Source of the DNA: Polyangiales bacterium
GTDB lineage: Bacteria; Myxococcota_A; Polyangia; Polyangiales; Ga0077539
Direction: 5' to 3'
Assembly (NCBI GenBank): GCA_046351535.1
Contig: JAXLYG010000023.1
Span: 1-64,000, forward strand
Length of the DNA: 64,000 nt
Shown: positions 36,169 to 58,966 of the stretch, in pieces
Numbering within the stretch: the stretch's first letter is position 1
How the letters are laid out: each line of letters starts with the position of its first letter
Translations under genes and position numbers: made by a program
Notes under the pieces: model-generated
The model's database searches: none
What the model was told of the DNA's origin: nothing
What the model saw: the letters and a program-made list of their open reading frames with translations, nothing else

Positions 36169-39100
36169 TCACTCCTTGCGTCGCGGCGCACCGGGCGGCG
36201 GAGGCACGTCGCCGCCCGAGGGGACGAAGGTCAACGCAGCGAGGGCGTCGAGCGAGGGCGCGTCGTCGGAGTCCGAGAGGCTCACCTCGACGTCACCCGC
36301 ATCGACCTCCTCGGCGTCCGAGACGCTCAGCTCGTCGAGGGCGTCGAAGGGAGAGGGTGCAGGCGGTGCAGACGCCTGGGGCTCCGCAGGAGGCGCAGGG
36401 GGCGCCGACATCCGCGGCAGCGGCGGCGGGAACGACGGCGACGGATCAGGCTGCGCAGCCGCGGCGACGGGCGCGATGGGCGCAGGCGCGGCGGGCCACA
36501 CGGGGCGAACCTCTTCGGCATCGGCGACGAACTCCGCCGACACCTCGGGCGCGTCGAGGAAGCTCTGCCCCGCAGGGTTCGCCTCGCTCACGCTGGGGAA
36601 CGAAGGCGGCGAGGGCATCCGCGGCGGAGACACCTGCGCGAGCGCGGCCCCGAGGTTCGCAGGCGGCGGCACCGTCGGCGTCTCGGCGACATCCTCGTGG
36701 AAGCGAAGCGGCGGGGCCTCGGCGCTCGCATCACCGAACGACGACGCGCCGAAGAGCGGCTGCGCGGCGGGCGCGACCGGCATCGCAGGAGGCGCCTCGT
36801 ACGCGGGCTGCTGCGCGTACTCGGGCTGCGCCGGATACTGCGGCGGCGCGACGAACTCGGCCTGCGCCGGGTACTGCGGCTGCGCTTCGTACTGCGGCTG
36901 GGCTTCGTACTGCGGCTGCGCTTCGTACTGCGGCGCGGCCTCGTACTGCGGCTGCGCCTCGTAGGTCTGCGCGACCTCGTACGAGGGCGCGGCGTCGAAC
37001 ATCACCGTGGGCGGATCGTCGGCGGGGATGTTCCCTCGCTGCGTGACGGAGCCCTGCTCCTCCTCGGGCGCCGACGGGACCACGGGCGTCGTCGTCGCGG
37101 GCTCCGCGGGAGCCTCCTCGAAGGCCATGAGGTCGGCCTCGATGATCGTGGGCCTGCGCTCCAGGCGTTCGAGCGCGGCCTTCGCCTCCTCGTCGCCGGG
37201 GGCCATCTTCAGCACGCGGCGCCAGATGTCGCGCGCTTCGAAGACGTTCTTGATCCGCGTCTCCCAGATCACCGCCATGCGACGCATCACCGCCGCGCGG
37301 TCTCCGCCCGCGTCGATCTCACGCTCGAGCGCCATGAGCAGCGGCTGCCAGCGCTCGTGACGCTCCAGCAATGACTGGAGCGCGCGCAGCACGTCGATGT
37401 CCTTGGGGGCGAGCTCGGCGAGCCGCTGGTACGCCTCGATGGCCTCCTCGACGCGACCGAGACGGTCGGCCAGGAGCGACGCGCGACGCCCCGTGTACGT
37501 GCGCGCGGTGCGAGCCTCGTAGGCCTCGTCGATCACCTTGCGGTAGAGGGTCACCACCTCGCCGAGACGGTCCGCGCGACCCGCGGCGTCTTCGAGCGCA
37601 GCGGCGCCGCGGACGTCATCGGGCCACACCGAGACCGCGCGGGTGTAGAGCCCGAGCGCGTGATCGAGGAGCGCGAGCTCCTGCTCACACAGCGCGCCGG
37701 CGCGACGGAGCAGCACGGCGCCCACGCGGGGGTTGTCTTCGACGGCGTCTTCCGCGAGGCGCGCGTAGCGCTCGACGAGGCCCGAGACCATGCCCGCGTC
37801 GGCGCGACGCTGGTCGGCCTGGATGCAGGCGTTCTCGACGCGCGCGAGCATCTCCTCGTCGGGCTCCTTGCGGCCCACGGCCTGACCGATGGCCTGCTCG
37901 ACGTACTGAAAGGCCGTCTCGCGGTCACCGAGCGAGCCGCCCGCGGTCTCGGCCGCGCGGAGCGTCACGCCGAAGCGCTCGGAGTCCGACTGCGCCGCCT
38001 TCTTGCGGCGATCGAAGGCCACGAAGAGGTCCGCGTGGCGCTTCGCGTTGGGCACCAGCCGCACCACCGCGTCGAGGATCTCGTCGTCGGCAGGCGCCTT
38101 CGCGAGCGCCGCGAGCGCGAACTCGAAGGCCTGCGCCCGGCCGCCGCTGCCCTCGATGGCGTTGAGGCCGCGCATCGAGAGCTCGTGCGCGAGCGTCGGA
38201 TCGGTGCACCCGTCGAGCGCGGCTTTGTACGCCTCGGCCACGCGCTGCGGGCGCTTGACCTTCGAAGCGAGCGCGTCGATGTGCGTGAGGTCCTCGGCGT
38301 CGACCTTGGCCACCGCGGCGCTCACCCACGCTTCGAAGGCCCCCTCCGGGTCACCGAGGAAGGTCTCCTTGCGCCGCGCCACCTCGCGCCAGAGCATCGA
38401 GCGCCCTTCGCGGTCGCTCACGCGGTTCGAGAGCTCCGAGAGGATCGGCACGAGCGCCGCGTGGAGGTCACGCTTGTTCGACAGGTCGAGCATCATCTCG
38501 ATGCACGCGACGTCGCCGCTCTTCACGGGCGCGATGAGCACCTCCCAGGCGCGGTGCGCGTCGTCGAGCTTCTCATCCGAGAGGTGCGCGATGCGCTGCG
38601 CGAGCTTCGAGATCTCCTCGTCGTCGCCCTCGATCTCGATGAGCTGATCGAGGTAGCCCACGGCCTCGCGGTAGCGCCCCTCGGCCTCGCACATGTCCGC
38701 GAGGCGCTGGATCACACCGAGGTCGCCCTGATCGGCGCGGTGCTGGATCTCGAGCGCCTTGATGATCGCCTCGGGCGTCTTGACCTCGCGCTCGACCATC
38801 GTCACGAGTCGCGAGGCGTGATCGGCGCGACGCTCGTCGTCCTCTTCGGGCGTGAGGTCGACCTGACGCTCGATGGCCTCCGACGCCACGTCCCAGCGAC
38901 GCGCTTCGAGGGCCATCTTCTCGAGGAGCTCCCAGGTCTCGGCGTGATCGGCGCCGTGCTCTCGCGCGGCCGCGGCGAGGGCGTCGACGGCCTCGTCGAC
39001 CCGACCGAGCTCCGTCGCGAGGAGCTGCGCGCGACGCTTGAGGATCTCGCGCTTCGCCTCGCGATCCTTCGCGGCGGCGGCGGCTTCGATGAAGAGCCCC

Positions 39101-41382: not shown

Positions 41383-42786
41383 TTACCGGAACACGGCGCT
41401 CGACCGGCCTCTGCGGGTGCCTCGGGGCCTTCGCACCGCGAGCCTGCGGGGCCTCTCCCTCGGACTCGGATCCGCTTCGGGCGCGCGTCGCGCGTGCAGC
41501 ACCGACTCGCTCCGAACGCTCGCTTCTGCGGCTCCTGCGACGGCTTCGACGGGGAGCAACATCGCAGCGTCGGCGTCGCGGAGCGTGCGAGACCACGCCC
41601 GGGTCATCCTCCGATCGCCTCCTCCGTCGCGGGGCATGAGCCCTGCGCTGACGTGTACGGCGGGCGCATCGGGCGAGGCCCTGTGTGAATTGACCGTCCA
41701 CAGCGGGAGGTATCCCGCCGACGCGACGGCGAGGCGCTCACCCCTGCGTTCGAAGCGCAGCACGGCGAGCAGGCCCGCGCGGGTCCTCGCGTCGAGCGAC
41801 ACGTGGGGATGCCTGAGGTCTTCGAGGAGCGCTGCCTCGGCGTTGGCGCCCTGATTCGAAACCAGGTTGCCGAGCGAGTAGTAGAGCGGAACGAGCCTGC
41901 CCCCCGCGTCGATCCACTCGGCGCGCAGCGGGACGTGGGGGTGGTGACCGATCACCGCGTCTGCGCCGGCCTCGGCGACGCGACGAAAGAACGCGCGCTC
42001 CACGGGCGCGACGCGGTCCTGATACTCGCTGCCTGCGTGGAGCGAGACCATCACCGCGCCGCAGCGCGCACGGGCCTCTCGCACGGCGCGAAGGAAGCGC
42101 TCCTCCTCGGCGGGGACCTCGGGCCTCGCGATGGCGACACGCGCGCGATCGGGTCCGGGGATCTCCATGTCGAAGTTGAGGAGGCGCGTCGCGGCGAGCA
42201 CGCAGAGCGTCGAGCCCGCGAGCGGAAACACCTGCGGCGTGAGGGGATCCTCGCCCGCGAGCGCGGCGCCCACGGGGGTGACGTGACGGCTACGAAGCGC
42301 GCGCACGGTCTCGTCGACGCCCGCGACGCCCTGATCGAAGACGTGGTTGTTGGCCGACGACACCGCGTCGACGCCCGCCACGGTGAGCGCGTCGAGGAAC
42401 GCGGGATGCACGTTGAAGCGCATCTGCTCGCGCGACACGGGACGCGACGCGGCCACCGGGGTCTCGAGGTTCACGAGCGCGAGGTCCGCCGCGCGCAGCA
42501 CCGGCGCGACGGGCGCGAGGAGCGCGAAGGTCCCGTAGGCATCGACCGCATCGAGCACCTCGGCGTGCGGAACGAGGTCTCCCGCGAAGACCACCGTCGC
42601 GGCGGTCGGCGGCTCCTCCGCGGAGGCAGCGGGGAGCTCCCGCACGGACTCGGTGACGATGGGCGCGGTGAGCGCGGCGCTGATTGCGGTCGCGCGAACG
42701 GCCACCGACGGACGCGGATCCGCGTACGCGGACGACGCGCCGAGGAGCGCGCACACGAGCGAGAGGAGGGTGGTCGAGCGGCCCAC
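41383..42786 (-). CDS. CapA/PgsA-like metallophosphatase (poly-gamma-glutamate capsule biosynthesis family), secreted
   Basis: Signal peptide (LLSLVCALLGASSAYADP). Calcineurin-like motifs (VVFAGDLVPH; LALVNLETP; SSANNHVFDQG; IGHHPHV). Confidence 0.75.
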   Translation of the reverse strand: MGRSTTLLSLVCALLGASSAYADPRPSVAVRATAISAALTAPIVTESVRELPAASAEEPPTAATVVFAGDLVPHAEVLDAVDAYGTFALLAPVAPVLRAADLALVNLETPVAASRPVSREQMRFNVHPAFLDALTVAGVDAVSSANNHVFDQGVAGVDETVRALRSRHVTPVGAALAGEDPLTPQVFPLAGSTLCVLAATRLLNFDMEIPGPDRARVAIARPEVPAEEERFLRAVREARARCGAVMVSLHAGSEYQDRVAPVERAFFRRVAEAGADAVIGHHPHVPLRAEWIDAGGRLVPLYYSLGNLVSNQGANAEAALLEDLRHPHVSLDARTRAGLLAVLRFERRGERLAVASAGYLPLWTVNSHRASPDAPAVHVSAGLMPRDGGGDRRMTRAWSRTLRDADAAMLLPVEAVAGAAEASVRSESVLHARRAPEADPSPRERPRRLAVRRPRGTRRGRSSAVFR

Positions 42787-42825
42787 GTCGTCGCCGGTAT
42801 CACGGCGCGAAGTGGAAGGTGAAAT

Positions 42826-43682
42826 TCAGTGCTGACCGGTGAGGACCTGCGCGGGCGCGGTGAGGATCTGCGTGGGGTTGGCGCCCTGCACGCCGGGGAT
42901 CGGGAGCCCCTGCCCTCCCCCGTTGTTGAGACCGGGAACGGGCACCGGGAAGGTGTTCTGCGACGACTGCCCGCCCGCGATGCCGGGGATGGGCACGCCG
43001 GGGATCGGTCCCGCGCTCGCGCCGTTGTTCATGCCGGGGATCGCAGGCGTCGGGATCGCCGGAGGACGCCCCGTGCCCGACTGGAACCACGACTGCCCCA
43101 TCGAGCGCGCGCCCGCATAGACAGCCTGTGCGGCGGCCATGCAGGGCGTCTCGAGGAGCCCGCGATGCTCCGAGCGACAGATCGCGTTGAGGTCTTCGTG
43201 GAGGCGGTCGTCGATGCGCGTGCGACGGCCCTCGGTGCGGTCGAGGGCGAGGCCGGTGCCGCCATAGTTCCGGTAGCCGAAATCGTGGCGGTTGCAGGCG
43301 CGGTTGAAGCTCTCGCGGAACGGCCCGCTGATCTCCCCGAAGGAGCACCCGTCGGCCGACCAGTCGAAGGGCGGCGGATGGAGCGCGCGCATGTTCTGAA
43401 AGGTCTCGAGCGGGAGGTTCATGTACCCGTCGGCGGTCATCACGAGGAGCTGCCTCGGCGCATTGGCCGGGAGCGGCGTTCCGAGCGCGGTTCCGCGCGA
43501 GCGCGTGGCGCGACCGCGGGAGCGACCCGACGAGGCCGTGGCGGGGCTGTTGCCGAGCGCGCCGTTCATCACGTTGGTGGCCGCCCCGACCATCTGATCG
43601 ATGGGGACGTTCTGCGCAGAGACCGTGGGCGAGAGGGCCGCGACGGCGACCCCGAGCGTGAAGGCCGTGACGTACGTTCGCA
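42826..43682 (-). CDS. secreted prokaryotic phospholipase A2 (Phospholip_A2_3-like) with Pro/Gly-rich C-terminal tail
   Basis: ATG near 43682 (MRTYVTAFTLGVAVAALSPTVSAQ). DGCSFGEISGPFRESFNRACNRHDFGYRNYG matches the catalytic His-Asp segment of Streptomyces-type secreted PLA2 (…ACARHDFGYRNY…). C-terminal IPGxx repeats. Confidence 0.75.
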
Positions 43683-43719
43683 TGGCGGGCAACGGTGCTC
43701 GAAAGAGGGGCGCCGTGCA

Positions 43720-44576
43720 ACCCTCTCCCCGTCCCTCTCCCGCGAAGCGGGAGAGGGTGCCCGTTGGTAGCTGCCATGCCCTCACCCCGCCCTCTCCCGC
43801 CAGAGGCGGGAGAGGGAGTCCGCGAGGCGACCCCGTCGCGCAGCGCCACGCAGGAAGCCTGGCACCGCGTCACCGTGTCGCGCGACGCGCCTGTCACAGC
43901 CCCACGCGCGAAGCGAACGCGCGACACGGCGGCGCGGCAACGAGCGCGCGGTCATCGCCCTCCGCCATCGCCGCGCTGTCTGTCATCGCCCTCCGCCCGT
44001 CGCCGCGTCTCGTCGCGTGACGTCTCCCTCTCCCGCCAGAGGAGTCTGACCGCCATTGGGGAGTTGACGGCGCCAGACGCTTCCCGTCGCGCCTGGGGTT
44101 CGGCCCGCGTGAGAGGGACGCGCGTGACGCGCCCAGGGCTCGCCCCCCGAGGGATGTACGCGATCGGGGGGCTCGGCCTGGGCTTCATCAAGGCACGGAT
44201 CACCGGTCTTCGACCGGTTCAGAAGGCATGGCGAGGCTCTCTCTGCTGAACCCTCGAAGAGGGTGATCCGTGCCTCGTCATAGCCCTGGCTGAGCCCCCG
44301 ATCGTGTACATCCCTTGGGGGGCGAACCCTGGGCGCGTCACGCGCGTATCTCCCTGGGCGCGTCACGCGCGTATCTCCCTGGGCGCGTCACGCGCGTATC
44401 TCCCTGGGCGCGTCACGCGCGTCCCTCTCACGCGGGCCGAACCCCAGGCGCGACGGGAAGCGTCTGGCGCCGTCAACTCCCCAATGGCGGTCAGACTCCT
44501 CTGGCGGGAGAGGGCGGGGTGAGGGCATGCCAGCTACCAACGGGCACCCGACTCCCGCTTCGCGGGAGAGGGACGG
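43720..44576. repeat. non-coding nested inverted-repeat element (outer arms ~43720-43820 / 44505-44576; inner ~117-bp arms 44019-44137 / 44404-44520)
   Basis: Direct reverse-complement matches were found by eye. gacgtctccctctcccgccagaggagtctgaccgccattggggagttgacggcgccagacgcttcccgtcgcgcctggggttcggcccgcgtgagagggacgcgcgtgacgcgcccagg (44019-) reappears as its reverse complement at 44404-. The outer arm ggtgcccgttggtagctgccatgccctcaccccgccctctcccgcc matches the reverse complement of 44520-44565 with 1 mismatch. Only R/A/G-rich spurious ORFs overlap the region. Confidence 0.8.
44328..44427. repeat. 4 x 25-bp perfect tandem repeat (cctgggcgcgtcacgcgcgtatctc) within the inverted-repeat element
   Basis: Read directly in the sequence. 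The unit duplicates the distal end of the inner inverted repeat. Confidence 0.85.
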
Positions 44577-44584
44577 GGTGAGGG

Positions 44585-45145
44585 TCAGTGGTTGTCAGTC
44601 CCGGTCTTCGCGGGCGCGTGGGCGTCGTTGGCGGGCGCGCTGACCTTCATCTCGGCGCGGACCTTCGAGGCCCTCGCGAGGCCCTGTGCGACGGAGGCGC
44701 CGTGCGCTTCGACGTAGTCCCGCACGCCGCCGTAGCTCTCGGCGGGAATGCGTCCCCGCTCGATCCTGCGGGTGACCTCCTCGTAGGCTTCGCGGAGCAT
44801 GGCGTCGGCCTTCGGCTCGATCACGGCGCGGCGGGCCTCGACGTATTGCCGCAGCGCTTCGAGGCGCGCGAGAAAGCTCCAGATCGCATCGAGCTCGTTG
44901 GCGACGGCGCCGCACCGCTGTTGAGAGGGCGCGAGATCGCCGAGGTCTTCGCCGTTCACCTCGATCTCGCGCAGCCCGCGGAGGCACTCCGCGCGATTGC
45001 CCTCGGCGATGCGCCACTTGCTGTCGCCCGCGGCTTCGAGCACCTCCTTGCGATCACCAGGGACCACGGGCAGTTGCGCCACGCTCATCGACTGCCCACC
45101 GAACACGATCACGCCGTTGATCGGCGTCTGCAACGTCGTCGCCAT
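44585..45145 (-). CDS. hypothetical protein (186 aa)
   Basis: ATG at 45145 (MATTLQTPINGVIVFGGQSMSVAQLPVVPGDRKEVLEAAGDSKWRIAEGNRAECLRG...). Mixed composition, no family recognised. A hairpin repeat lies immediately 3' of the stop. Confidence 0.55.
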   Translation of the reverse strand: MATTLQTPINGVIVFGGQSMSVAQLPVVPGDRKEVLEAAGDSKWRIAEGNRAECLRGLREIEVNGEDLGDLAPSQQRCGAVANELDAIWSFLARLEALRQYVEARRAVIEPKADAMLREAYEEVTRRIERGRIPAESYGGVRDYVEAHGASVAQGLARASKVRAEMKVSAPANDAHAPAKTGTDNH

Positions 45146-45405
45146 CGGACACTCCGCGAGCGAACCGCCGCCGTCGAACGCACCGCGCGCCCTCCTCCGC
45201 AGTCACTCACAAGAGGCGGGAACGGCCACGTCTCGGAGTTCTTGAACGCTTTTTGAATTTTTCTCTCCGTCCCTCCCATGCGTCATGAGGATGCGCGCTC
45301 GACGCGGCGCGTCTCTCCGAAGATGTGATTTTTCGTGTGAGGTCACGAAGGAACGAAGCATCGGGTACCTCTCCCCCGCGTCGCGCGTCTGCGAAGCGAT
45401 GCCGG

Positions 45406-45768
45406 TCACGTCCGCCGCGCGCGTCTTCGAAGCGCCGCGTTGGGGAACTCCGGGAGCACCGCACCATCCCGCGCGACCGCGCGCACGATCCAGAGAACCC
45501 CGGCGAGGAGCACGGCCCGGCCGGAGCGTTCCTTCAGCTCCCTCCACGAGATGGCATCGTGGTCGAAGCCGGGGTAGGTCACGCAGAACGAGGGGAGGCT
45601 CGCGTCGTCGACGGTGACGCCCACCGTGGCCTCGCTGTCGGAGAACGCCAGCACGAGCGTGTCGCCCTGGATCTCCCCACGCACCGCGTCACCGCAGACG
45701 GCCCTGATCTCCGCGAGGACCTCAGCGAGCATTCCCGCCTCCGCTGCATTCACGGCCCGCGGTCCCAC
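45406..45768 (-). CDS. possible small hypothetical protein (120 aa)
   Basis: ATG start. Contains W/Y/F/C (SLPSFCVTYPGFDHDAISWRELKERSG). No family recognised. Confidence 0.35.
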   Translation of the reverse strand: MGPRAVNAAEAGMLAEVLAEIRAVCGDAVRGEIQGDTLVLAFSDSEATVGVTVDDASLPSFCVTYPGFDHDAISWRELKERSGRAVLLAGVLWIVRAVARDGAVLPEFPNAALRRRARRT

Positions 45769-45819
45769 GCGGGTCGCGGTGTCGAGCCGAGCACGATCGC
45801 GCGGCGATCGCGTCGCGGT

Positions 45820-46155
45820 TCACTCGGGGTGGTACACATATCGGGCGTAGCGCTCCGCATAGAACGCCTCGAGCGACAGGCGCGATTCGAACAGCTCCGA
45901 CCAGAGCTCGTAGCCATCGACGAGGGGCGCTCCGTCCTGCTCATAGCCGATTCGCTCGGGGTGGATGGCGAGGTCGCGATCCTTCGCATAGTCGAGCGAC
46001 TCGGCCCTGGCCTTCTCATGGGCCTCGGTCCAGTCTCGCGCGTTGAAGGAGACGACGCGCTCCTCGAAAACGTTGGTTCCGCACTCTTGGTCACGCCGAA
46101 GTGGTAGACGGTTCGGATGGCGTACCAGGGCATCGGGGTCACCCCTGTACGGCAT
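45820..46155 (-). CDS. hypothetical protein (111 aa), acidic/aromatic-rich
   Basis: NVFEERVVSFNARDWTEAHEKARAESLDYAKDRDLAIHPERIGYEQDGAPLVDGYELWSELFESRLSLEAFYAERYARYVYHPE has a natural-looking composition. A second frame upstream (MPWYAIRTVYHFGVTK) suggests a possible frameshift near 46080. Confidence 0.45.
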   Translation of the reverse strand: MPYRGDPDALVRHPNRLPLRRDQECGTNVFEERVVSFNARDWTEAHEKARAESLDYAKDRDLAIHPERIGYEQDGAPLVDGYELWSELFESRLSLEAFYAERYARYVYHPE

Positions 46156-46653
46156 CCTTGAGCGTCCGGGCGAGCGCCATCACCTCCTCGGCGGGGCACG
46201 CGCGCACGAAGACCTGCACCCACGCCGGTAGCATCACGCAGTGTGAGGCATAGAACAGCCTCTCGTCTCGCATCGGGCGTCCGGCGAACACGAAGTCGAT
46301 GCCGTCGGTCTCGTCGAGTCGCAGGTCGAGCGACGTACCGGCTTCCCGCTCCAGACGCGCCTGCTCGTCGATCAGGGGGCGCAGCTTGCGCTTCACCATC
46401 AGCACGGTGTCACTCCCCGAGAAGAGCCTCGCGTCGGCCTTGACCTCGAGCAACCGGGGACCTTGCAAGTCGGCCAGCGTCTTCGCCTGCATGTTGATCC
46501 GGAACACCTCGAAGATGACGTGCGGCCCATGCTCCCTGAGCATCTCGTCCTCTCTCTTGAAGTGTGCCTCGACGGCGTCGTGCCCCTCGATCGTCGTGCC
46601 ATCGACGACGTTCACGACTCGGACATTGTCGTAGCGCGTGTCGGTCTCTTTCA
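46139..46653 (-). CDS. hypothetical protein, NTF2/SnoaL-like fold suspected (171 aa)
   Basis: ATG near 46653 (MKETDTRYDNVRVVNVVDGTTIEGHDAVEAHFKREDEMLREHGPHVIFEVFRINMQ...). The pattern of polar and hydrophobic residues fits a cone-shaped alpha+beta barrel, but this is tentative. Confidence 0.5.
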
Positions 46654-46724
46654 TCGGTTGCACACGTCGCGCAGCCGTCGTCGATCTGGCGCTGCCGATG
46701 GTAGGTCTCTGGAGCGCTCCTCGC

Positions 46725-47432
46725 TCACACCCGACGCGCACGCCCCGCGACGCGCCCCAGGAACGGCGCCACATGCGCCCATGCCTCTCGCGGCCGCGCT
46801 TGCAGGAGGAGGTGCGGCGCATCAACCAGCGCGAACGCAGCGTCCGGTCTCACCGCGCGCATGCGTTCGGCGCTTCGGGCGCTCACGAGTCGATCTCGCC
46901 CCGCGTTCAGGCACAACACAGGACAGCTCAGTTGCTGGAACTCCCGTGCGACATTCACCCGGGAGACCGAGGCGACGCGCTCCGCGATGACCTCACCGCG
47001 CACACCGAGCATCGCACGTCGAACGGTTGCCGCGAGCGCAGCGTCGCCGCCGGTCAGGAACACGCCCAACAGGAACTCGGGCGGCGGTCGGCTCCACATC
47101 TGCGAGGGAACGAGCCGGGAGAGCGCAGAGAGCGGACCGGACAACGGAGGCTCGATGAAGGTGGTGCTGAGCACGACACCCACCACCCGAACGCTCCGAG
47201 CCGCGAGAAGGATCGCGAGCGGTCCAGAGAACGACTCCGCCACGAGCACCACGTCGCCGTCTGGCAGACTGGCCTGCACCCGTTCCGCGAGCTCGGGATA
47301 GCGCTGCGCGCCGTCGTCAGGGAGCCGCAATCGCGCAACTGCGAGCCCCGGTGGCGCGGCTGCGATGAAGGGCGCGAACAGATCCCCCGTTCCGTCGAGA
47401 CCGGGAAGCAACACCGTGGTGGTCTGGCTCAC
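46725..47432 (-). CDS. alpha/beta hydrolase family protein
   Basis: VLLPGLDGTGDLFAPF...DVVLVAESFSGPLAIL carries the nucleophile elbow (GxSxG-like ESFSG) and matches the fold pattern. Confidence 0.7.
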   Translation of the reverse strand: MSQTTTVLLPGLDGTGDLFAPFIAAAPPGLAVARLRLPDDGAQRYPELAERVQASLPDGDVVLVAESFSGPLAILLAARSVRVVGVVLSTTFIEPPLSGPLSALSRLVPSQMWSRPPPEFLLGVFLTGGDAALAATVRRAMLGVRGEVIAERVASVSRVNVAREFQQLSCPVLCLNAGRDRLVSARSAERMRAVRPDAAFALVDAPHLLLQARPREAWAHVAPFLGRVAGRARRV

Positions 47433-47529
47433 GTCGCGGTCTCCGGGTCAGCGCGCGGCCGAAGCGTGCCCGCATGAACCGCCCTCGACACGCGACGTGT
47501 GAGCCCCTCGCCCGTCTGGAACCGTCGCG

Positions 47530-48018
47530 CTACTCAAGCTTCGCAAGCTCCTCCAGCAAGCACGCCTGAAGCTCTTCCCCCAGTTGAAAGAAACCGTCCG
47601 CCGACAAGATCACGTGTCGCGGGCTGGCCCGGTAGGAGCCAGGAAGAAGCTGTCCACCCCTGACCTCGAACCCGCCCACGATGTCCTCAGGCGGCACGGC
47701 GCCGTTCGGCGTTCGAGTCCGCTGGTCGATGACGTAGAGCCAGCCATCACCCTGTCGCCGGGCCGCCGCGACAAGGCCCGAAGCGCCCGGCCCACGACGG
47801 GCGATCACGTCGTGCATGAAGTCTACGAACACGCGGTTCCTCGCGAAGATCGCCGGGGTGATGTCCTCCCCGGGCTTCGGGGGCCGGAGCAGAACGCCGA
47901 CGATCGCCTCGGGCGCAAGCCCGCGCGCGAACACATGTTCGCCAGGCAGACAGCTTACATAGTGCTTGATCCCCTCGGGCGTATTGGACTCGTAGATGCT
48001 CATTGAAAACTCAGCCAT
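47530..48018 (-). CDS. hypothetical protein (163 aa)
   Basis: ATG at 48018 (MAEFSMSIYESNTPEGIKHYVSCLPGEHVFARGLAPEAIVGVLLRPPKPGEDITPAIFARNRVFVDFMHDVIARRG...). Natural-looking composition. No family recognised. Confidence 0.5.
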   Translation of the reverse strand: MAEFSMSIYESNTPEGIKHYVSCLPGEHVFARGLAPEAIVGVLLRPPKPGEDITPAIFARNRVFVDFMHDVIARRGPGASGLVAAARRQGDGWLYVIDQRTRTPNGAVPPEDIVGGFEVRGGQLLPGSYRASPRHVILSADGFFQLGEELQACLLEELAKLE

Positions 48019-48234
48019 CGCACCCCGCTCCTCGCGCTCAACCGCCTGCCACGACTGCCCCAGAGAGATCGACGGTATCATGGGCGCTCGTCGCCCGCCC
48101 CGCCAGCCGCGCCTCGCGCGAAATCGGGGGCGTCACGGTCACCACCCGAGCTGCCATGTCGGTCTCCTACCTCAGTTCATACGGAATGGCGAGCGCGGCC
48201 GGTGTCCGCACACCCGAAACACACGCCCGTCCGA

Positions 48235-48915
48235 TCAAGCCCCCGTCGCGACACCGTTCATGCGGAGCAGCGGTCGGAGACCGTACTCATCTACGGTGCT
48301 CCGACAGAACGCAGATTGGAAGCGCGGATCCTGCACCGACTCGTAGACCGGCCGCCCTCCCGCCTCGTAGCCGACGACGCGCCCATGAACGACACAGGCG
48401 AGCGGAAACGCGCCCGCGAGCCGCACCGTCGCCGAGGGACTGAACGGGTGAGGCGTGTCTCCGCGGGTCGAGGCCACAGGACCGAGCTCCACCACGAGCT
48501 CGGCGCGAAGACCGTTGGCCGCGAACACGAACTGAAACGCGCGAACGGGCCGCGCCACGCCGCCGAGTCCCACCGGATACACGACGCGGCTGACGGTCTC
48601 CTCCGCGGGAATCTCGACGCGCACGCCCGCAAGAAGGAGCTGCGATCGGTCGGGCGTCAGGTCGATCGTCCAGTCGAGCAGCTCGATCTCGTCGCCCCCG
48701 GGACGACCCACCGACTGAAAGCTGTAGGTGAGTCCGCGGCCCTCCTCGACGACGAAGCCACCGTGGAGCGCGAAGGTTCCAGTCGCATCGGTCACCGCGC
48801 CGGTCACGGGTGCAGGCGTGAGGTCGGGCATGAAGCCGGGTACGTGCGTCCCGCCCGCGTCGCACGCGACGAGGAGGGCGAAGGTCACGAGATTGAGCGC
48901 GACGCGATCGGGCAT
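48235..48915 (-). CDS. hypothetical lipoprotein
   Basis: Internal ATG (MPDRVALNLVTFALLVACDAG: lipobox LVAC). Beta-rich mature region. Confidence 0.5.
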   Translation of the reverse strand: MPDRVALNLVTFALLVACDAGGTHVPGFMPDLTPAPVTGAVTDATGTFALHGGFVVEEGRGLTYSFQSVGRPGGDEIELLDWTIDLTPDRSQLLLAGVRVEIPAEETVSRVVYPVGLGGVARPVRAFQFVFAANGLRAELVVELGPVASTRGDTPHPFSPSATVRLAGAFPLACVVHGRVVGYEAGGRPVYESVQDPRFQSAFCRSTVDEYGLRPLLRMNGVATGA

Positions 48916-49027
48916 ACGGTCACTTCGTGGACCTCGACGATACACCGACGGCCCGCCTCTCACGCGCGATCCCTGCTAACCCTCCAGTAACGTCAGTCCG
49001 CCGCCGATCACCGTCGCTCGTCGTCGT

Positions 49028-49118
49028 TGCCGAACGGCTGGCCGATGTGCCGCCGCAGCGGGTGGAGCGGGTTGGCAATGCGTGAGGTGGGGGCGGACGG
49101 CACCATCGGCTTGTTCGG
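49028..49118. repeat. attC-like imperfect inverted repeat, copy 1 (91 bp)
   Basis: Begins gccgaac (RYYYAAC-like, one mismatch) and ends gttcggc (GTTRRRY-like). Inner paired boxes ggctggccgatgtgcc / ggcaccatcggc. Lies ~120 bp downstream of CDS 49241..49849. Confidence 0.5.
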
Positions 49119-49240
49119 CAAGCCTGACTCGGCGACGAACCTAACCGTTGCGATCACGTGCTGCCCCTCCGAGACCGTTGTGCCTTGGTTCGTTGCATCC
49201 ATCCTCGGGGCGCATTCTCTCCCAATTTCGCTCTTATGGA

Positions 49241-49849
49241 TCAACTCTCTTCGTCCGCAGTTCGCTTGGGCTTCGATCCACGCCCTTCACTCACCGTCCG
49301 TACAGATGCGGCGCCCGCTTCAGCCTCCACCGTCGGCAGCCCGATGTACTTACCCTGAAGCGCGACATGCACTCCGTCCGCGCGGTAGTCCGTGAGGATC
49401 ACCTCCACAGTGGATGATAACCGCGAGTAGGTGAGTGATCTGTAGCTCTGCCTAATGGGGGCTATGCCCTCGAGCTCGGGTTGCTCGACCGTGACTCCGT
49501 GGGGGTCGTCGCGATCGGGCACCCCGAGGACGCGAAACGCATCCTCCACCGACTTGATCCCGGCAAGCAGTCGGTCGAGCCGCTGCCGCTCCTCCGGGGA
49601 GATGACGGCAAACAGCAGGTGTCGCTTCGACTCGGGAGCCGCGCCGCCGCAGAATGGGCAGTGGTAGATCCGCAGCGACGCGTTGCCGACCTCGCACGTA
49701 CCGTCGCTGCTAGGGTCGGGGTACACGAAGTTGTACTCGTTCAGTTTCGGGTCGAAGACGATCGGCGATTGCGGATCGTCGGCAGCGCGCTCCAGATAGT
49801 GGCAGGCGCACGACTGCTCAGTCACGGAAGCAAAGGTCGGCTTCGCCAT
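49241..49849 (-). CDS. hypothetical zinc-ribbon-like protein (cassette ORF)
   Basis: ATG at 49849 (MAKPTFASVTEQSCACHYLERAADDPQSPIVFDPKLNEYNFVYPDPSSDGTCEVGNASLRIYHCPFCGG...). CxC…C…CPFC Cys cluster. Lower local GC. Confidence 0.55.
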   Translation of the reverse strand: MAKPTFASVTEQSCACHYLERAADDPQSPIVFDPKLNEYNFVYPDPSSDGTCEVGNASLRIYHCPFCGGAAPESKRHLLFAVISPEERQRLDRLLAGIKSVEDAFRVLGVPDRDDPHGVTVEQPELEGIAPIRQSYRSLTYSRLSSTVEVILTDYRADGVHVALQGKYIGLPTVEAEAGAASVRTVSEGRGSKPKRTADEES

Positions 49850-49913
49850 TGGATCACCTCCACCAACACCGCCGAACGGCCGAGACGGGCCTCGCCAGCG
49901 CGATTGCTTGGAG

Positions 49914-50003
49914 GCCGAACGGCTGGCCGATGTGCCGCCGCCCCGAGGGCCGTGCGGGCTCCGCAAGGGCAGCGGTGGCGGTCGGCACCATCGGCTTGTT
50001 GGG
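49914..50003. repeat. attC-like imperfect inverted repeat, copy 2 (90 bp)
   Basis: gccgaac ... gttgggc, where the terminal core GTTGGGC fits GTTRRRY exactly. Same internal boxes as copy 1. A partial extra gccgaacggcc lies at 49871. ~168 bp downstream of CDS 50171..50707. Confidence 0.5.
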
Positions 50004-50170
50004 CATCCCGCTCGTGCTCGCATCACACGCGTCCGACGCTCTCTGCCGCCTCCTGCTCGTAGCTTTGTTCATCTACCTCTCCGTAGCTGCACCGCCGTGC
50101 CCGTCGGCCAACGCCTGCCGCTCCCTAGCGGGCCGTCGGAGCGGAGGCACATCGAACGGCAGCAAAAGAA

Positions 50171-50707
50171 TCACGCTTCGGAGAAATCCAGGTTCATTGG
50201 GGCGGACTTGATTGAGTACATCGACTGCATGTTGGTGGCGGGCACCGAATCATCGACAGCCTCGAAGCGCACGTCCGCCCAGAAGAGCTCGCCGCTCCCC
50301 GTGAGAATATTCGAGATGAAGATCGCGTTGGCCTCCTCGGGGACGTCGAGCACGCACGCGTAGTGAGTCCATTCTGTAGTTCCGGAGACAGCTGGACGCG
50401 TCTCCATATTGTCGAACGCTAGAGTTCGTCGTGAGCCGTCCGACTCAGCGCCATCGATGCGGAAGCAAATCGCGGCGCGGCCGGTTACATCTACCGTGCG
50501 TAGAGCAGCCGAGAGCCGGACGCGCCTCCCACGATATGGATCGGGCTTGAATACCTGAAACATTGCGCCGAAGCCATCGGCCCCATCAGCCGAACGCCAC
50601 ATCCGAACAACGGGCTTTCCGCTGTGCACCTCAGAACTGACCTCAGCCGAATACGCGTCGCTCCTTGAACCCGTAATGCCCCAGTCCTTCACCGCACAGG
50701 TGCCCAT
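50171..50707 (-). CDS. hypothetical protein (178 aa, cassette ORF)
   Basis: MGTCAVKDWGITGSRSDAYSAEVSSEVHSGKPVVRMWRSADGADGFGAMFQVFKPDPYRG... with natural-looking composition and a lower GC than the flanks. Confidence 0.5.
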   Translation of the reverse strand: MGTCAVKDWGITGSRSDAYSAEVSSEVHSGKPVVRMWRSADGADGFGAMFQVFKPDPYRGRRVRLSAALRTVDVTGRAAICFRIDGAESDGSRRTLAFDNMETRPAVSGTTEWTHYACVLDVPEEANAIFISNILTGSGELFWADVRFEAVDDSVPATNMQSMYSIKSAPMNLDFSEA

Positions 50708-50757
50708 CGGAGTGCCTCCTTCTCGACCGTAGAGGAAATTCGGTGCTTTCGCAGGCT

Positions 50758-50848
50758 GCCCAACGGCTGGCCGATGTGGCGCCGCCCCGAGTCAGGTGAG
50801 TAGTTCGCGAGTTGAGTGGGTGCGGTCGCCACCATCGGCTTGTTCGGC
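50758..50848. repeat. attC-like imperfect inverted repeat, copy 3 (91 bp)
   Basis: gcccaac (exact RYYYAAC) ... gttcggc. Internal boxes ggctggccgatgtggc / gccaccatcggc. Confidence 0.5.
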
Positions 50849-51190
50849 CCGGCGGGTCCAGTGGGCTGATCCACGGGGGCCACAGCCAACCGCTCCGTCG
50901 CTCGGAGTCCGTTGCCCGTCGCTCGCCTCGTGAGTCCCGCCACCGTCACCCTTGCTTTTTGTCGTTCAACACCCATTGCCGCCAACTCGTCAAGAGCTTT
51001 CCGACCGCGTCGACGCCATGACCAGCGAGTTTCTAGCCTGTGAGGGGAGATCGCGGGCGTGGATGGACAGGCGCGTCGGGCGCCCGCTCCGCGCCTCGGA
51101 AACTCTGGTCTACGGACCAATGCACCGGCACCGCGGCATCAGATCAAACCCTCCCGACTACACCTCCCCGTGTCCGAATCTCCTTACCGA

Positions 51191-51568
51191 CTATCGAGCT
51201 GTGCACGCCCTTCCCGAGACGATGGCACCAGAATCCGAAATCACCGCAGCGGTATTACAATGATACTGACTTGTGAGTCTTCTTGAACAGTACGTCGACT
51301 CATCGCACGCGAGTGCGCAGACACGTGACGTCGTATCCACCAAACAAACCACGCCGACTCCACCGCAATCGAAAATATTTTCGCAGTATTTCGTGCACAC
51401 TCCTTGCGGAAACTGAGCGCTTCGCAGGCAAAATGTGCTTGGTGGGCAATCCGCGTTGAGTGAACACGGGGCCGAAATTGGCGAATATTCCTCTGTGGCC
51501 CCACCACACCCTCCACCCTCCCATGCTGACGCGACAGCAAGAATTACCCCCACCTTCACGGAGTTCAC
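51191..51568 (-). CDS. small secreted Cys-rich protein (125 aa, cassette ORF)
   Basis: Signal peptide (MNSVKVGVILAVASAW). 14 Cys (…CSLNADCPPSTFCLRSAQFPQGVCTKYCENIFDCGG…). Low GC. Confidence 0.45.
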   Translation of the reverse strand: MNSVKVGVILAVASAWEGGGCGGATEEYSPISAPCSLNADCPPSTFCLRSAQFPQGVCTKYCENIFDCGGVGVVCLVDTTSRVCALACDESTYCSRRLTSQYHCNTAAVISDSGAIVSGRACTAR

Positions 51569-51612
51569 GGGCTCAACTCCCTACGTCGCCGCCGACCACC
51601 GCCGCCGAAGCT

Positions 51613-51703
51613 GCCGAACGACTGGCCGGTCTGCCGCCGCAGCGAGCCAGGCGCGTAGTTGTTGAGTGAAGTGCAAGCGGTCGGCAGCACCGGCTTGTTC
51701 GGC
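51613..51703. repeat. attC-like imperfect inverted repeat, copy 4 (91 bp)
   Basis: gccgaac ... gttcggc. Begins 34 bp after the stop of CDS 51737..52321. Confidence 0.5.
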
Positions 51704-51736
51704 ATTGTGTTCATCAATTTCGGAGGTCTTCCTCAG

Positions 51737-52321
51737 TCAAAATATCCCGCCGCCGCAGAGCACGAGACCACGGCCGTCGGCCAATGGCAACAGTGTCGGC
51801 GCGAAATACCGAGCCTGCCACTGGGGCGCTTCGGTAGTCTGCCGCGCGCTGTTCGCTGACGAGATCTCGTACGCGACCACTCCGCCTGTGATCCAGCCGA
51901 TCGCGGTCGTGACCATGGGAACGACCGAGAGATCATTATCCGCGAGTTGGAACGGAACACCTACCAGGTAGCCCGCGAACCCGCCTGCCCAGCCGCCGAG
52001 CATGGTCCACCCATAGCCGCCGCCTCCCCCCATCGCATTGCCGGTGAGCGTGATGCCTCCCGGAACCGCGAACCACGTTCCGACGGCGCCTACCACGATG
52101 ATCGAGATTGTACCGGCGCTCGAACTGCCTTCGAAGCCCGCCAGCGCGAGGCCGTAGGTCAAGCCGAAACCGAGCGCGAAGGCCGCGCTCCCTCCGCCAA
52201 CTTCCACGAGCACGCGCCCCGTACTGATAGGACTGATCGGGTGCCCCTGAGCCCACACGTCCGAGGCGCTCATGCACACGGCAAGCGAGAGCGGAACAGA
52301 CCCGGCGATTCGCCAACTCAC
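51737..52321 (-). CDS. secreted Gly-rich hypothetical protein (194 aa, first cassette ORF)
   Basis: Signal peptide (MSWRIAGSVPLSLAVCMSASDVWAQG). Gly/Ala/aromatic-rich repeats (GFGLTYGLALAGFEG; GGGGGYGWTMLGGWAGGFAGYL). Confidence 0.5.
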   Translation of the reverse strand: MSWRIAGSVPLSLAVCMSASDVWAQGHPISPISTGRVLVEVGGGSAAFALGFGLTYGLALAGFEGSSSAGTISIIVVGAVGTWFAVPGGITLTGNAMGGGGGYGWTMLGGWAGGFAGYLVGVPFQLADNDLSVVPMVTTAIGWITGGVVAYEISSANSARQTTEAPQWQARYFAPTLLPLADGRGLVLCGGGIF

Positions 52322-52539
52322 GGGTATGTAGCGCGCAGGCGCCCTGACAGATATGGCATTCGGCTCACGAGCGCTTGGAGGTGAAGGTCTCGGTCTGGCC
52401 CCAATCGACGGCGAGCACTACTGTTCTTGGTAGGTCGCTTGCCCCTATACGCCGCATCTCTCGGCTCACCTAGTGCTCCTCGTTGACCGCCGCTCATCGC
52501 GGCTGCCGAACATCTCATTCACCCGCAGGACGATAACAC

Positions 52540-52990
52540 GCATACGCGCGTCGCGTCCGAACACCTGTCTGCACGCGACGTCCGAACACCCATACGCGCG
52601 TCGCACGGTAACACCCTTCTGCATGCCGCAACAGAGAAACGTCCCGCCCGCCGCGTCCGCTCCCTCCCCGCCCCTACATCCCCCTACCCCACGCGACACA
52701 CACTCCCTCCGTCCGCCACGCCCGCACGCTCCCCTTCACTGAACAACACCCTCTCCGACACTGTGCAACACTCTCCCGGATACTCTGTGACACTATATTT
52801 CATGCGTGTCACACTCGCCCTCCCTTGAAGATCTCCGACACTCTCCCCGTGACACTACAACTCTCTCCGAGAAGATCTCCCACTCTCTCCTGGTGACACT
52901 ACAACTCTCTCCCGCGACATCTCCCAGTCTCTCCCCAAACGACTCGCGCCGCTCCCCTCCCCCCGCGACCTCGCGCCGCTGGACCGGTCG
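52540..52990. other. strand-asymmetric polypyrimidine (C/T/A-rich, G-poor) low-complexity tract with direct repeats and a palindrome
   Basis: The top strand has almost no G for ~450 bp. Direct repeats catacgcgcgtcgc x2, gtccgaacacc x2 and gtgacactacaactctctcc x2. Palindrome ctgtgacactatatttcatgcgtgtcacac includes an AT-rich tatattt box. No plausible ORF. Confidence 0.6.
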
Positions 52991-53210
52991 CGACCCACGT
53001 CCGGGTCTTGTCGCCTGCTCTCGCGAGGGCTGTATCAGCTAGGCAACGCTCAGCCATCGCCCCGCTCCGGAGCTTCGGGGAGCTGTCAGCAACACCCCCC
53101 GTTCGCCGGAGCGAGACGTCGTCAGTGACCATCCTTCACGCGCGGCCACAGCGCGGCCACGGAGGCGCTCCCGCGGACCGGAGCGCCCCCTGTGGGCCCG
53201 GCGTCAGCGG

Positions 53211-58809: not shown

Positions 58810-58859
58810 CCCTCCCCCGGTCCCTCCCCCGCGAAGGGGGAGAGGGACGGGGTGAGGGC
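58810..58859. terminator. GC-rich imperfect hairpin (gccctcccccggtccctccccc-gcgaa-gggggagagggacggggtgagggc), a member of a dispersed palindromic repeat family
   Basis: Lies directly after the stop of CDS 57175..58809. The same gggagagggacggggtgaggg motif occurs at 43731-43756 and 44545-44575. Confidence 0.5.
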
Positions 58860-58966
58860 TTCACAACTCGCGCATCCCGCCGCACAACCCGTCCGCGAGG
58901 CACGCGCGAAATCGCCGTGTTTCCCAGCGGTATGCGCGCTGCAAACGCATCGCGGAGAGGTGATCT

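Follow-up and report, generated by a model that had tools for sequence, protein, structure and literature searches.

What kind of DNA fills a short bacterial spacer with 866 bp of nested palindromes in one lineage while most relatives keep the same two genes 77 to 78 bp apart without it? The question is raised by contig JAXLYG010000023.1 of a Polyangiales bacterium (GenBank assembly GCA_046351535.1), of which positions 1 to 64,000 were analyzed (here called the window, 64 kb in length). In this window, the spacer between a gene encoding 186 aa and a gene for a phospholipase A2 (PLA2) is filled by a giant quasi-palindrome of 866 bp at 43720 to 44585. The element is a real, well-defined, strain-specific nested palindrome with three layers, namely, a shell of short repeat units, an inner module, and a set of secondary changes. 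It is absent from relatives, its shell resembles a known repeat family, its module has a second copy in another genome, and it carries no signal of coding or of a known RNA. We read 43720 to 44585, with a probability of roughly 0.55, as a noncoding, lineage-specific composite of selfish, structure-prone repeats that probably includes a non-autonomous fold-back element.

Anatomy of the quasi-palindrome

The original prediction for this locus, made from the sequence alone, had described a noncoding element built from nested long inverted repeats and internal tandem repeats. Every feature that it listed is present, with slightly shifted coordinates. The inner arms, proposed as near-perfect repeats of ~117 bp at 44019 to 44137 and 44404 to 44520, are real, but a repeat search placed them at 44026 to 44138 and 44402 to 44514, with a length of 113 nt and 100% complementarity. 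The outer arms pair as proposed, in one stretch of 34 nt (43720 to 43753 with 44552 to 44585, 97%) and another of 52 nt (43755 to 43806 with 44498 to 44549, 98%), but the element ends at 44585, where it touches the stop codon of the upstream gene, and not at 44576. The same search recovered the core palindromes as pairs of 58 nt (44113 to 44170 with 44295 to 44352, 91%) and 38 nt (44167 to 44204 with 44262 to 44299, 82%). The four proposed 25-bp tandem repeats correspond to an array of 3.8 copies at 44327 to 44422 (period, 25 bp; 100% matches in Tandem Repeats Finder), and a proposed pair of 26-bp repeats exists but is exact over only 16 nt (GTCATCGCCCTCCGCC, starting at 43951 and 43982). Long inverted repeats in the 64-kb window are limited to the element and one further pair, which resembles diverged paralogous genes. 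The parts of the element, its flanking genes, and a related repeat elsewhere in the window are listed below; a strand is given for the genes only, unless stated.

43720 to 43757: unit A, a BoxC/PIT-like three-block unit with block a ACCCTCTCCCCGT and the hairpin CCCTCTCCCGC-GAA-GCGGGAGAGGG; pairs with A'; relaxed TMECO match at 43721 to 43757 on the minus strand
43758 to 43778: spacer B, TGCCCGTTGGTAGCTGCCATG, 21 nt; pairs with B'
43779 to 43816: unit C, the second BoxC/PIT-like three-block unit, CCCTCACCCCG plus CCCTCTCCCGCC-AGA-GGCGGGAGAGGG
43817 to 44025: segment D, 209 nt, for which the right arm has no counterpart; contains a 20-nt hairpin (43865 to 43884 with 43918 to 43937) and the 16-nt repeat in two copies
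44026 to 44042: copy of a BoxC half-stem and loop, the 17 nt CCCTCTCCCGCCAGAGG; direct repeat of 43790 to 43806 and outer end of the 113-nt perfect arm
44043 to 44138: E, left terminal inverted repeat of the inner module, beginning AGTCTGACCGCCATTGGGGAGTTGACGG; holds one copy of the 25-bp repeat core; agrees at 96/96 positions with E' and with the module's second copy (L002, see below)
44139 to 44326: F, imperfect palindromic core with the central stem GGCACGGATCACC / GGTGATCCGTGCC around three small hairpins; symmetry center at ~44205 to 44261
44327 to 44422: tandem array, 25 bp x 3.8 (CCCTGGGCGCGTCACGCGCGTATCT), with the 13-bp palindrome GCGCGTCACGCGC in each unit; the last unit overlaps E'
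44402 to 44497: E', right terminal inverted repeat of the inner module, from the repeat search and the alignment to E
44498 to 44525: C', half a BoxC unit (CCTCTGGCGGGAGAGGG plus CGGGGTGAGGG), directly adjoining E'
44526 to 44546: spacer B', the partner of B
44547 to 44585: unit A', BoxC-like but slightly degenerate, with GGGAGAGGGACGGGGTGAGGGT at its end; the final base also closes the 186-aa gene's stop codon
42826 to 43683, minus strand: downstream flanking gene, a prokaryotic phospholipase A2 (Pfam PF09056), with its ATG 36 nt from the element
44585 to 45145, minus strand: flanking gene on the upstream side, encoding 186 aa without a Pfam family, whose stop codon meets the element
58810 to 58860: solitary four-block BoxC-like palindrome of the same repeat family as the shell units, directly after a stop codon

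Folded as single-stranded DNA, 43715 to 44590 (876 nt) forms one giant branched hairpin of -460.8 kcal/mol, compared with -226 +/- 6 kcal/mol for shuffles of the same stretch (z = -37.9). Identity between the two sides is 100% in the outer arms, then 91%, and then 82% toward the center. The inner module, E-F-E' (44043 to 44497, ~455 bp), lies between the two halves of unit C and is bounded by perfect terminal inverted repeats of 96 nt; the mirror symmetry reaches the loop nucleotides on either side of it (AGAGG...CCTCT). An arm-versus-arm alignment revealed two asymmetries. The left arm is 236 nt longer, and its extra segment, which consists of D together with 43807 to 43816 and 44026 to 44042, begins with a BoxC 3' half, finishes with a BoxC 5' half, and is bounded by the 17-nt direct repeat CCCTCTCCCGCCAGAGG (43790 and 44026). 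The right arm is longer by 75 nt, which correspond to three additional 25-bp units. The motif of the 25-bp array was found nowhere else in the window; another 25-bp array, at 52.5 kb, has only the short word ATACGCGCGT in common with it and was treated as unrelated.

The element was also predicted to hold no credible open reading frame (ORF), and this claim stands. Frames of 50 to 184 aa inside it are mechanical only, with a GC content at third codon positions of 0.67 to 0.80 that is flat over the codon positions, versus 0.87 to 0.91 in the flanking genes. When a 127-aa ORF of the element and the remaining reading frames of the module, joined end to end, were compared with 5.8 billion proteins, 0 matches were obtained in any frame. 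The flanks are likewise those proposed, with the PLA2 gene on one side and the 3' end of the next gene on the other.

Related loci, shell repeats, and a second copy of the module

Fourteen related loci were analyzed: L003 to L014, found through homologs of the 186-aa protein, together with L001 and L016. At ten of them (L003 to L012), the 186-aa gene is followed by the PLA2 gene after a spacer of 77 to 78 bp, without the element. In blastn comparisons, L003 and L004 are collinear with the window on both sides and break at 44575 and 43725, where 27 nt replace 849; read side by side, the empty site has 'TGACCC' and 'TTGCAC' separated by ~38 nt of sequence that is unrelated. The nucleotide identity of the 186-aa gene to that of the window is 96.6% in L004, 95.3% in L003, 94.3% in L005 to L011, and 94.2% in L012, all of them empty, and reaches 99.3% in L013 and 98.4% in L014, the nearest relatives, in both of which the first BoxC repeat unit directly follows the gene's stop codon. 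L001, from the same activated-sludge sample as L013 (ERZ937806), contains A, B, C, and half of D (the first) upstream of a PLA2 protein identical to that of the window. Because three successively more distant lineages are empty and the nearest clade alone is filled, a lineage-specific insertion in the recent common ancestor of the filled clade is the parsimonious interpretation. The comparison across related strains, suggested along with the original prediction, thus reveals presence/absence variation at the PLA2 locus.

The contigs of three relatives (L001, L013, and L014) end inside or next to repeats. L001 leaves the window sequence at 43919, inside the D hairpin (43865 to 43937), and its tail (1 to 167) is unrelated DNA; L013 departs five nucleotides into the 3' half of A', and its tail (3559 to 3632) is unrelated and of lower GC. 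Both contigs stop shortly past the point of divergence, and the tails could represent the ends of an insertion sequence (IS) or another filling of the site. Considered as two ends of one IS, they showed no similarity to each other or to any other sequence fetched. A separate irregularity is seen in L004 (GCA_964268295.1), where the 186-aa gene at 10001 to 10563 is annotated as a pair of ORFs, of 108 and 79 aa, with one alignment gap, reflecting a frameshift or a sequencing error.

By its sequence, the shell is made of GC-rich units of the BoxC/PIT/TMECO type (PIT, potential intrastrand triplex), a known and widespread intergenic repeat, in inverted configuration (A and C on the left, C' and A' on the right). 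The published consensus is 5'-CCCTCNCCC N3-6 GGGNGAGGG N3 GGGNGAGGG-3', with three consecutive 9-nt blocks (Holder et al. 2015, PMC4666352). The motif occurs 3610 times in 262 proteobacterial genomes, always in intergenic positions and sometimes in an inverted, 'palindromic' form, and neither promoter nor terminator activity has been demonstrated for it (PMC4666352). Units A and C and their mirror images follow the grammar CCCTC(N)CCCC-G(T)-CCCTCTCCCGC-loop-GCGGGAGAGGG(-ACG-GGGTGAGGG). When the consensus was relaxed to loops of N3-9 and N2-3, four matches were detected in the window (43721 to 43757, 43779 to 43816, 58810 to 58846, and 58822 to 58858), compared with 0 in 100 shuffles. BoxC-like units therefore occupy two loci in the 64 kb (43.7 to 44.6 kb and 58.8 kb), in addition to one in L004, and all are intergenic. 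The palindrome at 58810 to 58860 suggests, on sequence grounds, that units of the shell type are dispersed in this genome; it has four blocks in the window and three in L004 (1807 to 1843), the difference being a clean 12-nt block indel.

The family resemblance extends to other bacteria. The 49-nt unit consensus gave full-length alignments of ~80 to 82% to intergenic sites in 1695 E. coli genomes, and the unit has matches in 4961/5426 complete E. coli genomes, at a median of 6 places in each genome that are, almost without exception, chromosomal and intergenic; one example, CCCTCACCCCGGCCCTCTCCCCAGAGGGGAGAGGGCTAGGGTGAGGG, lies between phnK and phnL. In a plasmid search, unit C had matches of ~88 to 90% in replicons of Cupriavidus, Mitsuaria, and Variovorax. 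Strain-to-strain rearrangement is significantly higher at BoxC/PIT/TMECO sites than at control intergenic sites (PMC4666352), and variability was found here in the presence or absence of the element at the PLA2 locus, in the 12-nt indel at 58.8 kb, and in the L001 and L013 breakpoints inside hairpins. That BoxC/PIT repeats, as in the shell, are known to mark variable loci and that breakpoints of close relatives fall inside the repeat hairpins supports the recombination hotspot, and equally the mobile-element remnant, named among the candidates of the original prediction.

The inner module was traced with a 24-mer from the inner arm, which had a single match among one genome per GTDB species. 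The match, L002, is a 2146-bp contig (CAZEAA010000713.1) of an uncultured Sandaracinaceae metagenome-assembled genome (MAG). Positions 439 to 679 of L002 correspond to 44043 to 44284 of the window at 99.2%, with 96/96 identical positions in the arm and 2 differences in the left core and center. Just outside the module, 14/18 nt match, and the remaining 400 nt of the flank match nothing in the window; this flank has no coding signature, and no homologous gene lies next to the module there. The 18-nt junction CCCTTTCCCCGCCAGTTG, preceded by CCCTAACCCCG, is a degenerate BoxC half and repeats the 'a-b-E' junction of C'-E' in the window. Thus, the module starts next to a BoxC-like half-site in both genomes. 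Most differences between the left and right cores of the window recur in L002 in the same orientation, which indicates that the imperfect palindrome is older than both copies and was copied in its entirety. A group II intron cuts the L002 module at the position corresponding to 44284/44285, 10 nt past the central 13-bp stem. This intron (680 to 2146) has the 5' end GTGCG, a match of 108 bits to Rfam RF02001 (D1-D4-3), and a reverse transcriptase (RT)/maturase ORF from ~1107.

A MITE (miniature inverted-repeat transposable element) or mobile-element remnant had been another candidate. The module has the terminal inverted repeats (E/E', 96/96) and the small size (455 bp) of a MITE and no coding signal, and this candidate, like the recombination hotspot, gains support from the absence of the element at ten related loci and from the recurrence of the module at 99.2% with different flanks.

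Origin of the composite and alternative explanations

Under the reading as a composite of selfish repeats, the element would have replaced ~27 to 38 nt of a formerly 77- to 78-bp spacer between the 186-aa gene and the PLA2 gene. The BoxC units would have arrived first, because the filled clade shares them throughout. The tips of these units, which form hairpins or triplexes, may have been preferred sites of breakage, insertion, and recombination, and the layers may have been built up in this way. The fold-back module may have entered between the halves of unit C, either by transposition, with the function provided in trans, or through recombination between repeats; a precedent is given by IS elements and introns for which intergenic palindromes serve as targets (PMC1525189). 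The 236-bp segment looks like a product of BoxC-BoxC recombination, or it may be what survived when its mirror copy was deleted, and the three extra units of the 25-bp array in the right arm may have arisen by slippage. Long palindromes are subject to center-dependent hairpin extrusion and cleavage by SbcCD. The imperfect center and the two arm asymmetries would let such a long palindrome survive hairpin-cleaving nucleases.

A more specific proposal would make E-F-E' the first member of a new bacterial family of non-autonomous fold-back elements that insert specifically at the apex of BoxC/PIT triplex-hairpin motifs. We consider this quite doubtful. If it were true, the BoxC units would be dedicated landing pads, and the unexplained 'genomic instability' around BoxC/PIT motifs would have a mechanistic explanation.

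Several observations weigh against a composite with a mobile module. The block sequences of the shell are exact, but the first loops measure 7 to 9 nt and the second loops 2 to 3 nt, slightly off the published N3-6 and N3. The polarity of the insertion is derived from gene identities and not from a rooted tree, the distant homologs of the 186-aa protein (P0002 and P0007) having yielded no usable outgroup (PLA2 absent from the contigs or no DNA), and the order of events is uncertain, as the sludge relative has A-B-C-D and diverges at 43919 and inside A'. The L002 contig ends inside the intron, so that the right end of the module copy and the 3' exon are unseen. Further copies of the module numbered 0 in JGI metagenome contigs (searched with two patterns), viral contigs, plasmids, and the spurious ORFs of the protein collection; there are only two instances, in two genomes, whereas multi-copy status is the hallmark of a MITE. 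No target-site duplication was found: the flanks of E-F-E', CAGAG and CTCTG, are inverted complements, and the composite as a whole replaces 27 to 38 nt without duplication. No transposase was detected among the ORFs scanned near the element, 14 window ORFs having been compared with Pfam. Finally, the different context of L002 could result from the rearrangement of one unstable locus instead of transposition.

An alternative is an origin in place, with nothing mobile. A BoxC cluster at this site would have undergone inverted duplication when the template was switched or a hairpin was repaired by fold-back, with slippage and small insertions coming later, and L002 would show this unstable locus, or else a segmental copy of it, as present in a related genome whose flanks have turned over. 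Fold-back synthesis would give the mirror symmetry down to the loop nucleotides (AGAGG...CCTCT), target-site duplication and transposase were not found, and databases contain extremely few instances of the element. A tendency of BoxC/TM loci to rearrange is reported, as is a remodeling of their palindromic pairs such that hairpins persist (PMC4666352); the breakpoints of the relatives studied here map inside hairpins. However, identity to L002 drops in a sharp step at the module edge, from 99.2% to 14/18 and then to nothing, and the core asymmetries are conserved in both copies; these two observations fit a discrete unit that was copied as a whole. The L002 flank, in addition, resembles nothing in the 64-kb window. 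Given the perfect mirror symmetry at the flanks of the module and the rarity of the module, we regard local formation as plausible, though unlikely.

The position of the element, 36 nt upstream of the PLA2 start codon, is also what might be expected of a functional structured noncoding element. This could be a long-hairpin RNA or a protein-binding platform of four 25-bp units with GCGCGTCACGCGC, with a role in regulating PLA2 or in the termination or insulation of the upstream gene. Folding of both strands, which the original prediction had suggested, showed the core to be very stable as RNA on each (-150.8 kcal/mol, z -15.5; -140.4 kcal/mol, z -14.5); the module is 99.2% conserved in two genomes, and the tandem palindromic 13-mers resemble operator sites. 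However, any DNA palindrome gives such stability on two strands, the mismatches in the arm alignment do not favor G-U pairing on one strand, and two near-identical copies provide no basis for covariation. In L002, the module is disrupted by the intron and adjoins no homologous gene. An Rfam 15 covariance scan of 42500 to 45800 at E <= 1 identified no family, the lone match, to mir-592, being spurious (21.5 bits compared with a gathering score of 67; E = 0.32), and a consensus scan of the element detected neither a sigma-70-like promoter nor an intrinsic terminator, with no T-run terminator. Considering also that ten related loci keep the gene pair with a spacer of 77 to 78 bp in which the element is absent, the structured regulatory RNA of the original prediction is not borne out, and a functional role of this kind is improbable. 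The element is probably neither gene nor regulator. Retrons, integron attC sites, CRISPR arrays, replication iterons, and hairpin telomeres were considered from the anatomy and dropped because no RT, integrase, or cas gene was seen among the nearby ORFs scanned, the repeats are without spacers, and the element is absent from relatives.

An assembly artifact, that is, a chimeric fold-back join in a MAG, is hardly credible: although the window appears MAG-derived, its 113-nt arms are perfectly identical, and other assemblies (L001, L013, and L014) break within or beside repeats, independent assemblies from other samples repeat the left shell and D (L001) and the start of the right shell (L013 and L014), L002 repeats the left arm, the center, and the first part of the right core, specific indels and substitutions distinguish the two arms, as would not be the case in a simple fold-back chimera, and both flanks are syntenic with relatives.

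The composite of selfish repeats shows no sign of a dedicated function, and its likely consequence is a side effect. It could act as a strong structural barrier or, if transcribed, as a long perfect double-stranded RNA. Only 36 nt of the original PLA2 upstream region remain, and the 866-nt structured spacer should impede read-through; for the host, the main consequence is probably that the PLA2 gene is uncoupled from its upstream neighbor.

The locus bears on the biology of BoxC/PIT repeats, which are widespread but have no promoter, no terminator, and no clear triplex role in vivo, and which are linked to variable loci by a statistical association only. It offers a natural example of the reported instability of such motifs and a lead to the mechanism behind it. 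Natural alleles are available here in the empty, partly filled, and fully loaded states, and they show that BoxC units can stack into an 866-bp quasi-palindrome and host a foreign fold-back module between their halves. Breakpoints that separate close strains also fall at BoxC units. If the pattern is confirmed by more copies, structure-specific insertion or repair at the hairpin tip would be suggested as the source of instability. A practical caution is that such elements break short-read assemblies and yield long spurious ORFs in GC-rich genomes.

Surroundings of the element and comparison with known systems

Directly upstream of the 186-aa gene, 45733 to 48068 contains ~2.3 kb of small minus-strand ORFs of lower GC, of which one weakly matches an alpha/beta-hydrolase and another DUF4288. 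A different and shorter segment (~0.45 to 0.8 kb) takes its place in L003, L004, L013, and L014, with a small HNH endonuclease gene in the last three; this replacement places the element at the edge of a variable island. A further ~4.2 kb (48447 to 52642), missing from L004, has lower GC (0.58 to 0.68), four repeats spaced by ~850 bp at 49019 to 51704, and one ORF that matches DUF6980. Next comes a CT-rich noncoding stretch (52480 to 53000) with tandem repeats of 25 nt x2.8 and 44 nt x2.5, and in L004 a DDE_Tnp_1 transposase gene adjoins the homologous stretch. Elsewhere in the window, long diverged inverted repeats at 23227 to 24063 and 26221 to 27057 (74 to 86% over segments of 100 to 210 nt, ~2 to 3.4 kb apart) are probably paralogous genes in opposite orientation. 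Two long tandem repeats look in-frame, one of 24 nt x6.7 at 28222 to 28471 and one of 18 nt x9.6 at 36788 to 36997; the second, within the ORF of a 1715-aa TPR protein, is likely a coding repeat.

Among known systems, the shell is closest in kind to the BoxC/PIT/TMECO repeats of E. coli and other Proteobacteria, with which it shares the block grammar, including four-block palindromic forms, the strictly intergenic position, what may be a dispersed distribution, the inverted pairs, and the association with intergenic indels and strain variability (PMC4666352). It differs in its host, a Polyangiales/Sandaracinaceae-like myxobacterial MAG, and in loops that are a little longer or shorter than the consensus. 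The arrangement of a two-layer shell around a 455-bp fold-back module is not described in PMC4666352.

The REP, BIME, and REPIN repeats, together with the IS that target them (IS1397, ISKpn1, IS621, and ISPpu9/10), are similar in being short GC-rich intergenic palindromes that occur singly or as inverted doublets (PMC1525189). REP-type palindromes are documented as specific targets on which mobile DNA lands (in P. putida, group II introns among it) and as recombination junctions (PMC1525189). In contrast to REP and REPIN, the unit read from the sequence here is BoxC-like and has no GTAG head; no RAYT or IS gene was seen in a Pfam scan that covered part (14) of the window ORFs. Bacterial group IIC introns typically lie downstream of terminator-like or other inverted repeats (PMC1702495), and the L002 intron is comparable in lying 10 nt downstream of the central 13-bp stem of the module. 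Unlike such target sites, this one has no T-run terminator, the window copy is intron-free, and the L002 intron is known as group II only. Unlike REP-targeting IS elements, the inserted module is without a transposase.

The module itself is comparable to bacterial MITEs (Correia/NEMIS, ERIC, and RUP) and to eukaryotic Foldback elements, which are small and noncoding, with long terminal inverted repeats, a fold into one hairpin, intergenic positions, and presence/absence polymorphism. Like the module, Foldback elements also have tandem sub-repeats in their arms, in numbers that differ between the arms. MITEs are usually multi-copy and have target-site duplications and a recognizable parent IS. 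With at least 96 nt, and in effect the entire element, the terminal repeats of the module greatly exceed those of typical bacterial MITEs in length. Because no target-site duplication was found and only two instances are known, the module is best described as resembling a MITE or a Foldback element and is not filed as a MITE. The locus as a whole is a new arrangement of the known BoxC/PIT repeat class, enclosing an unclassified fold-back module.

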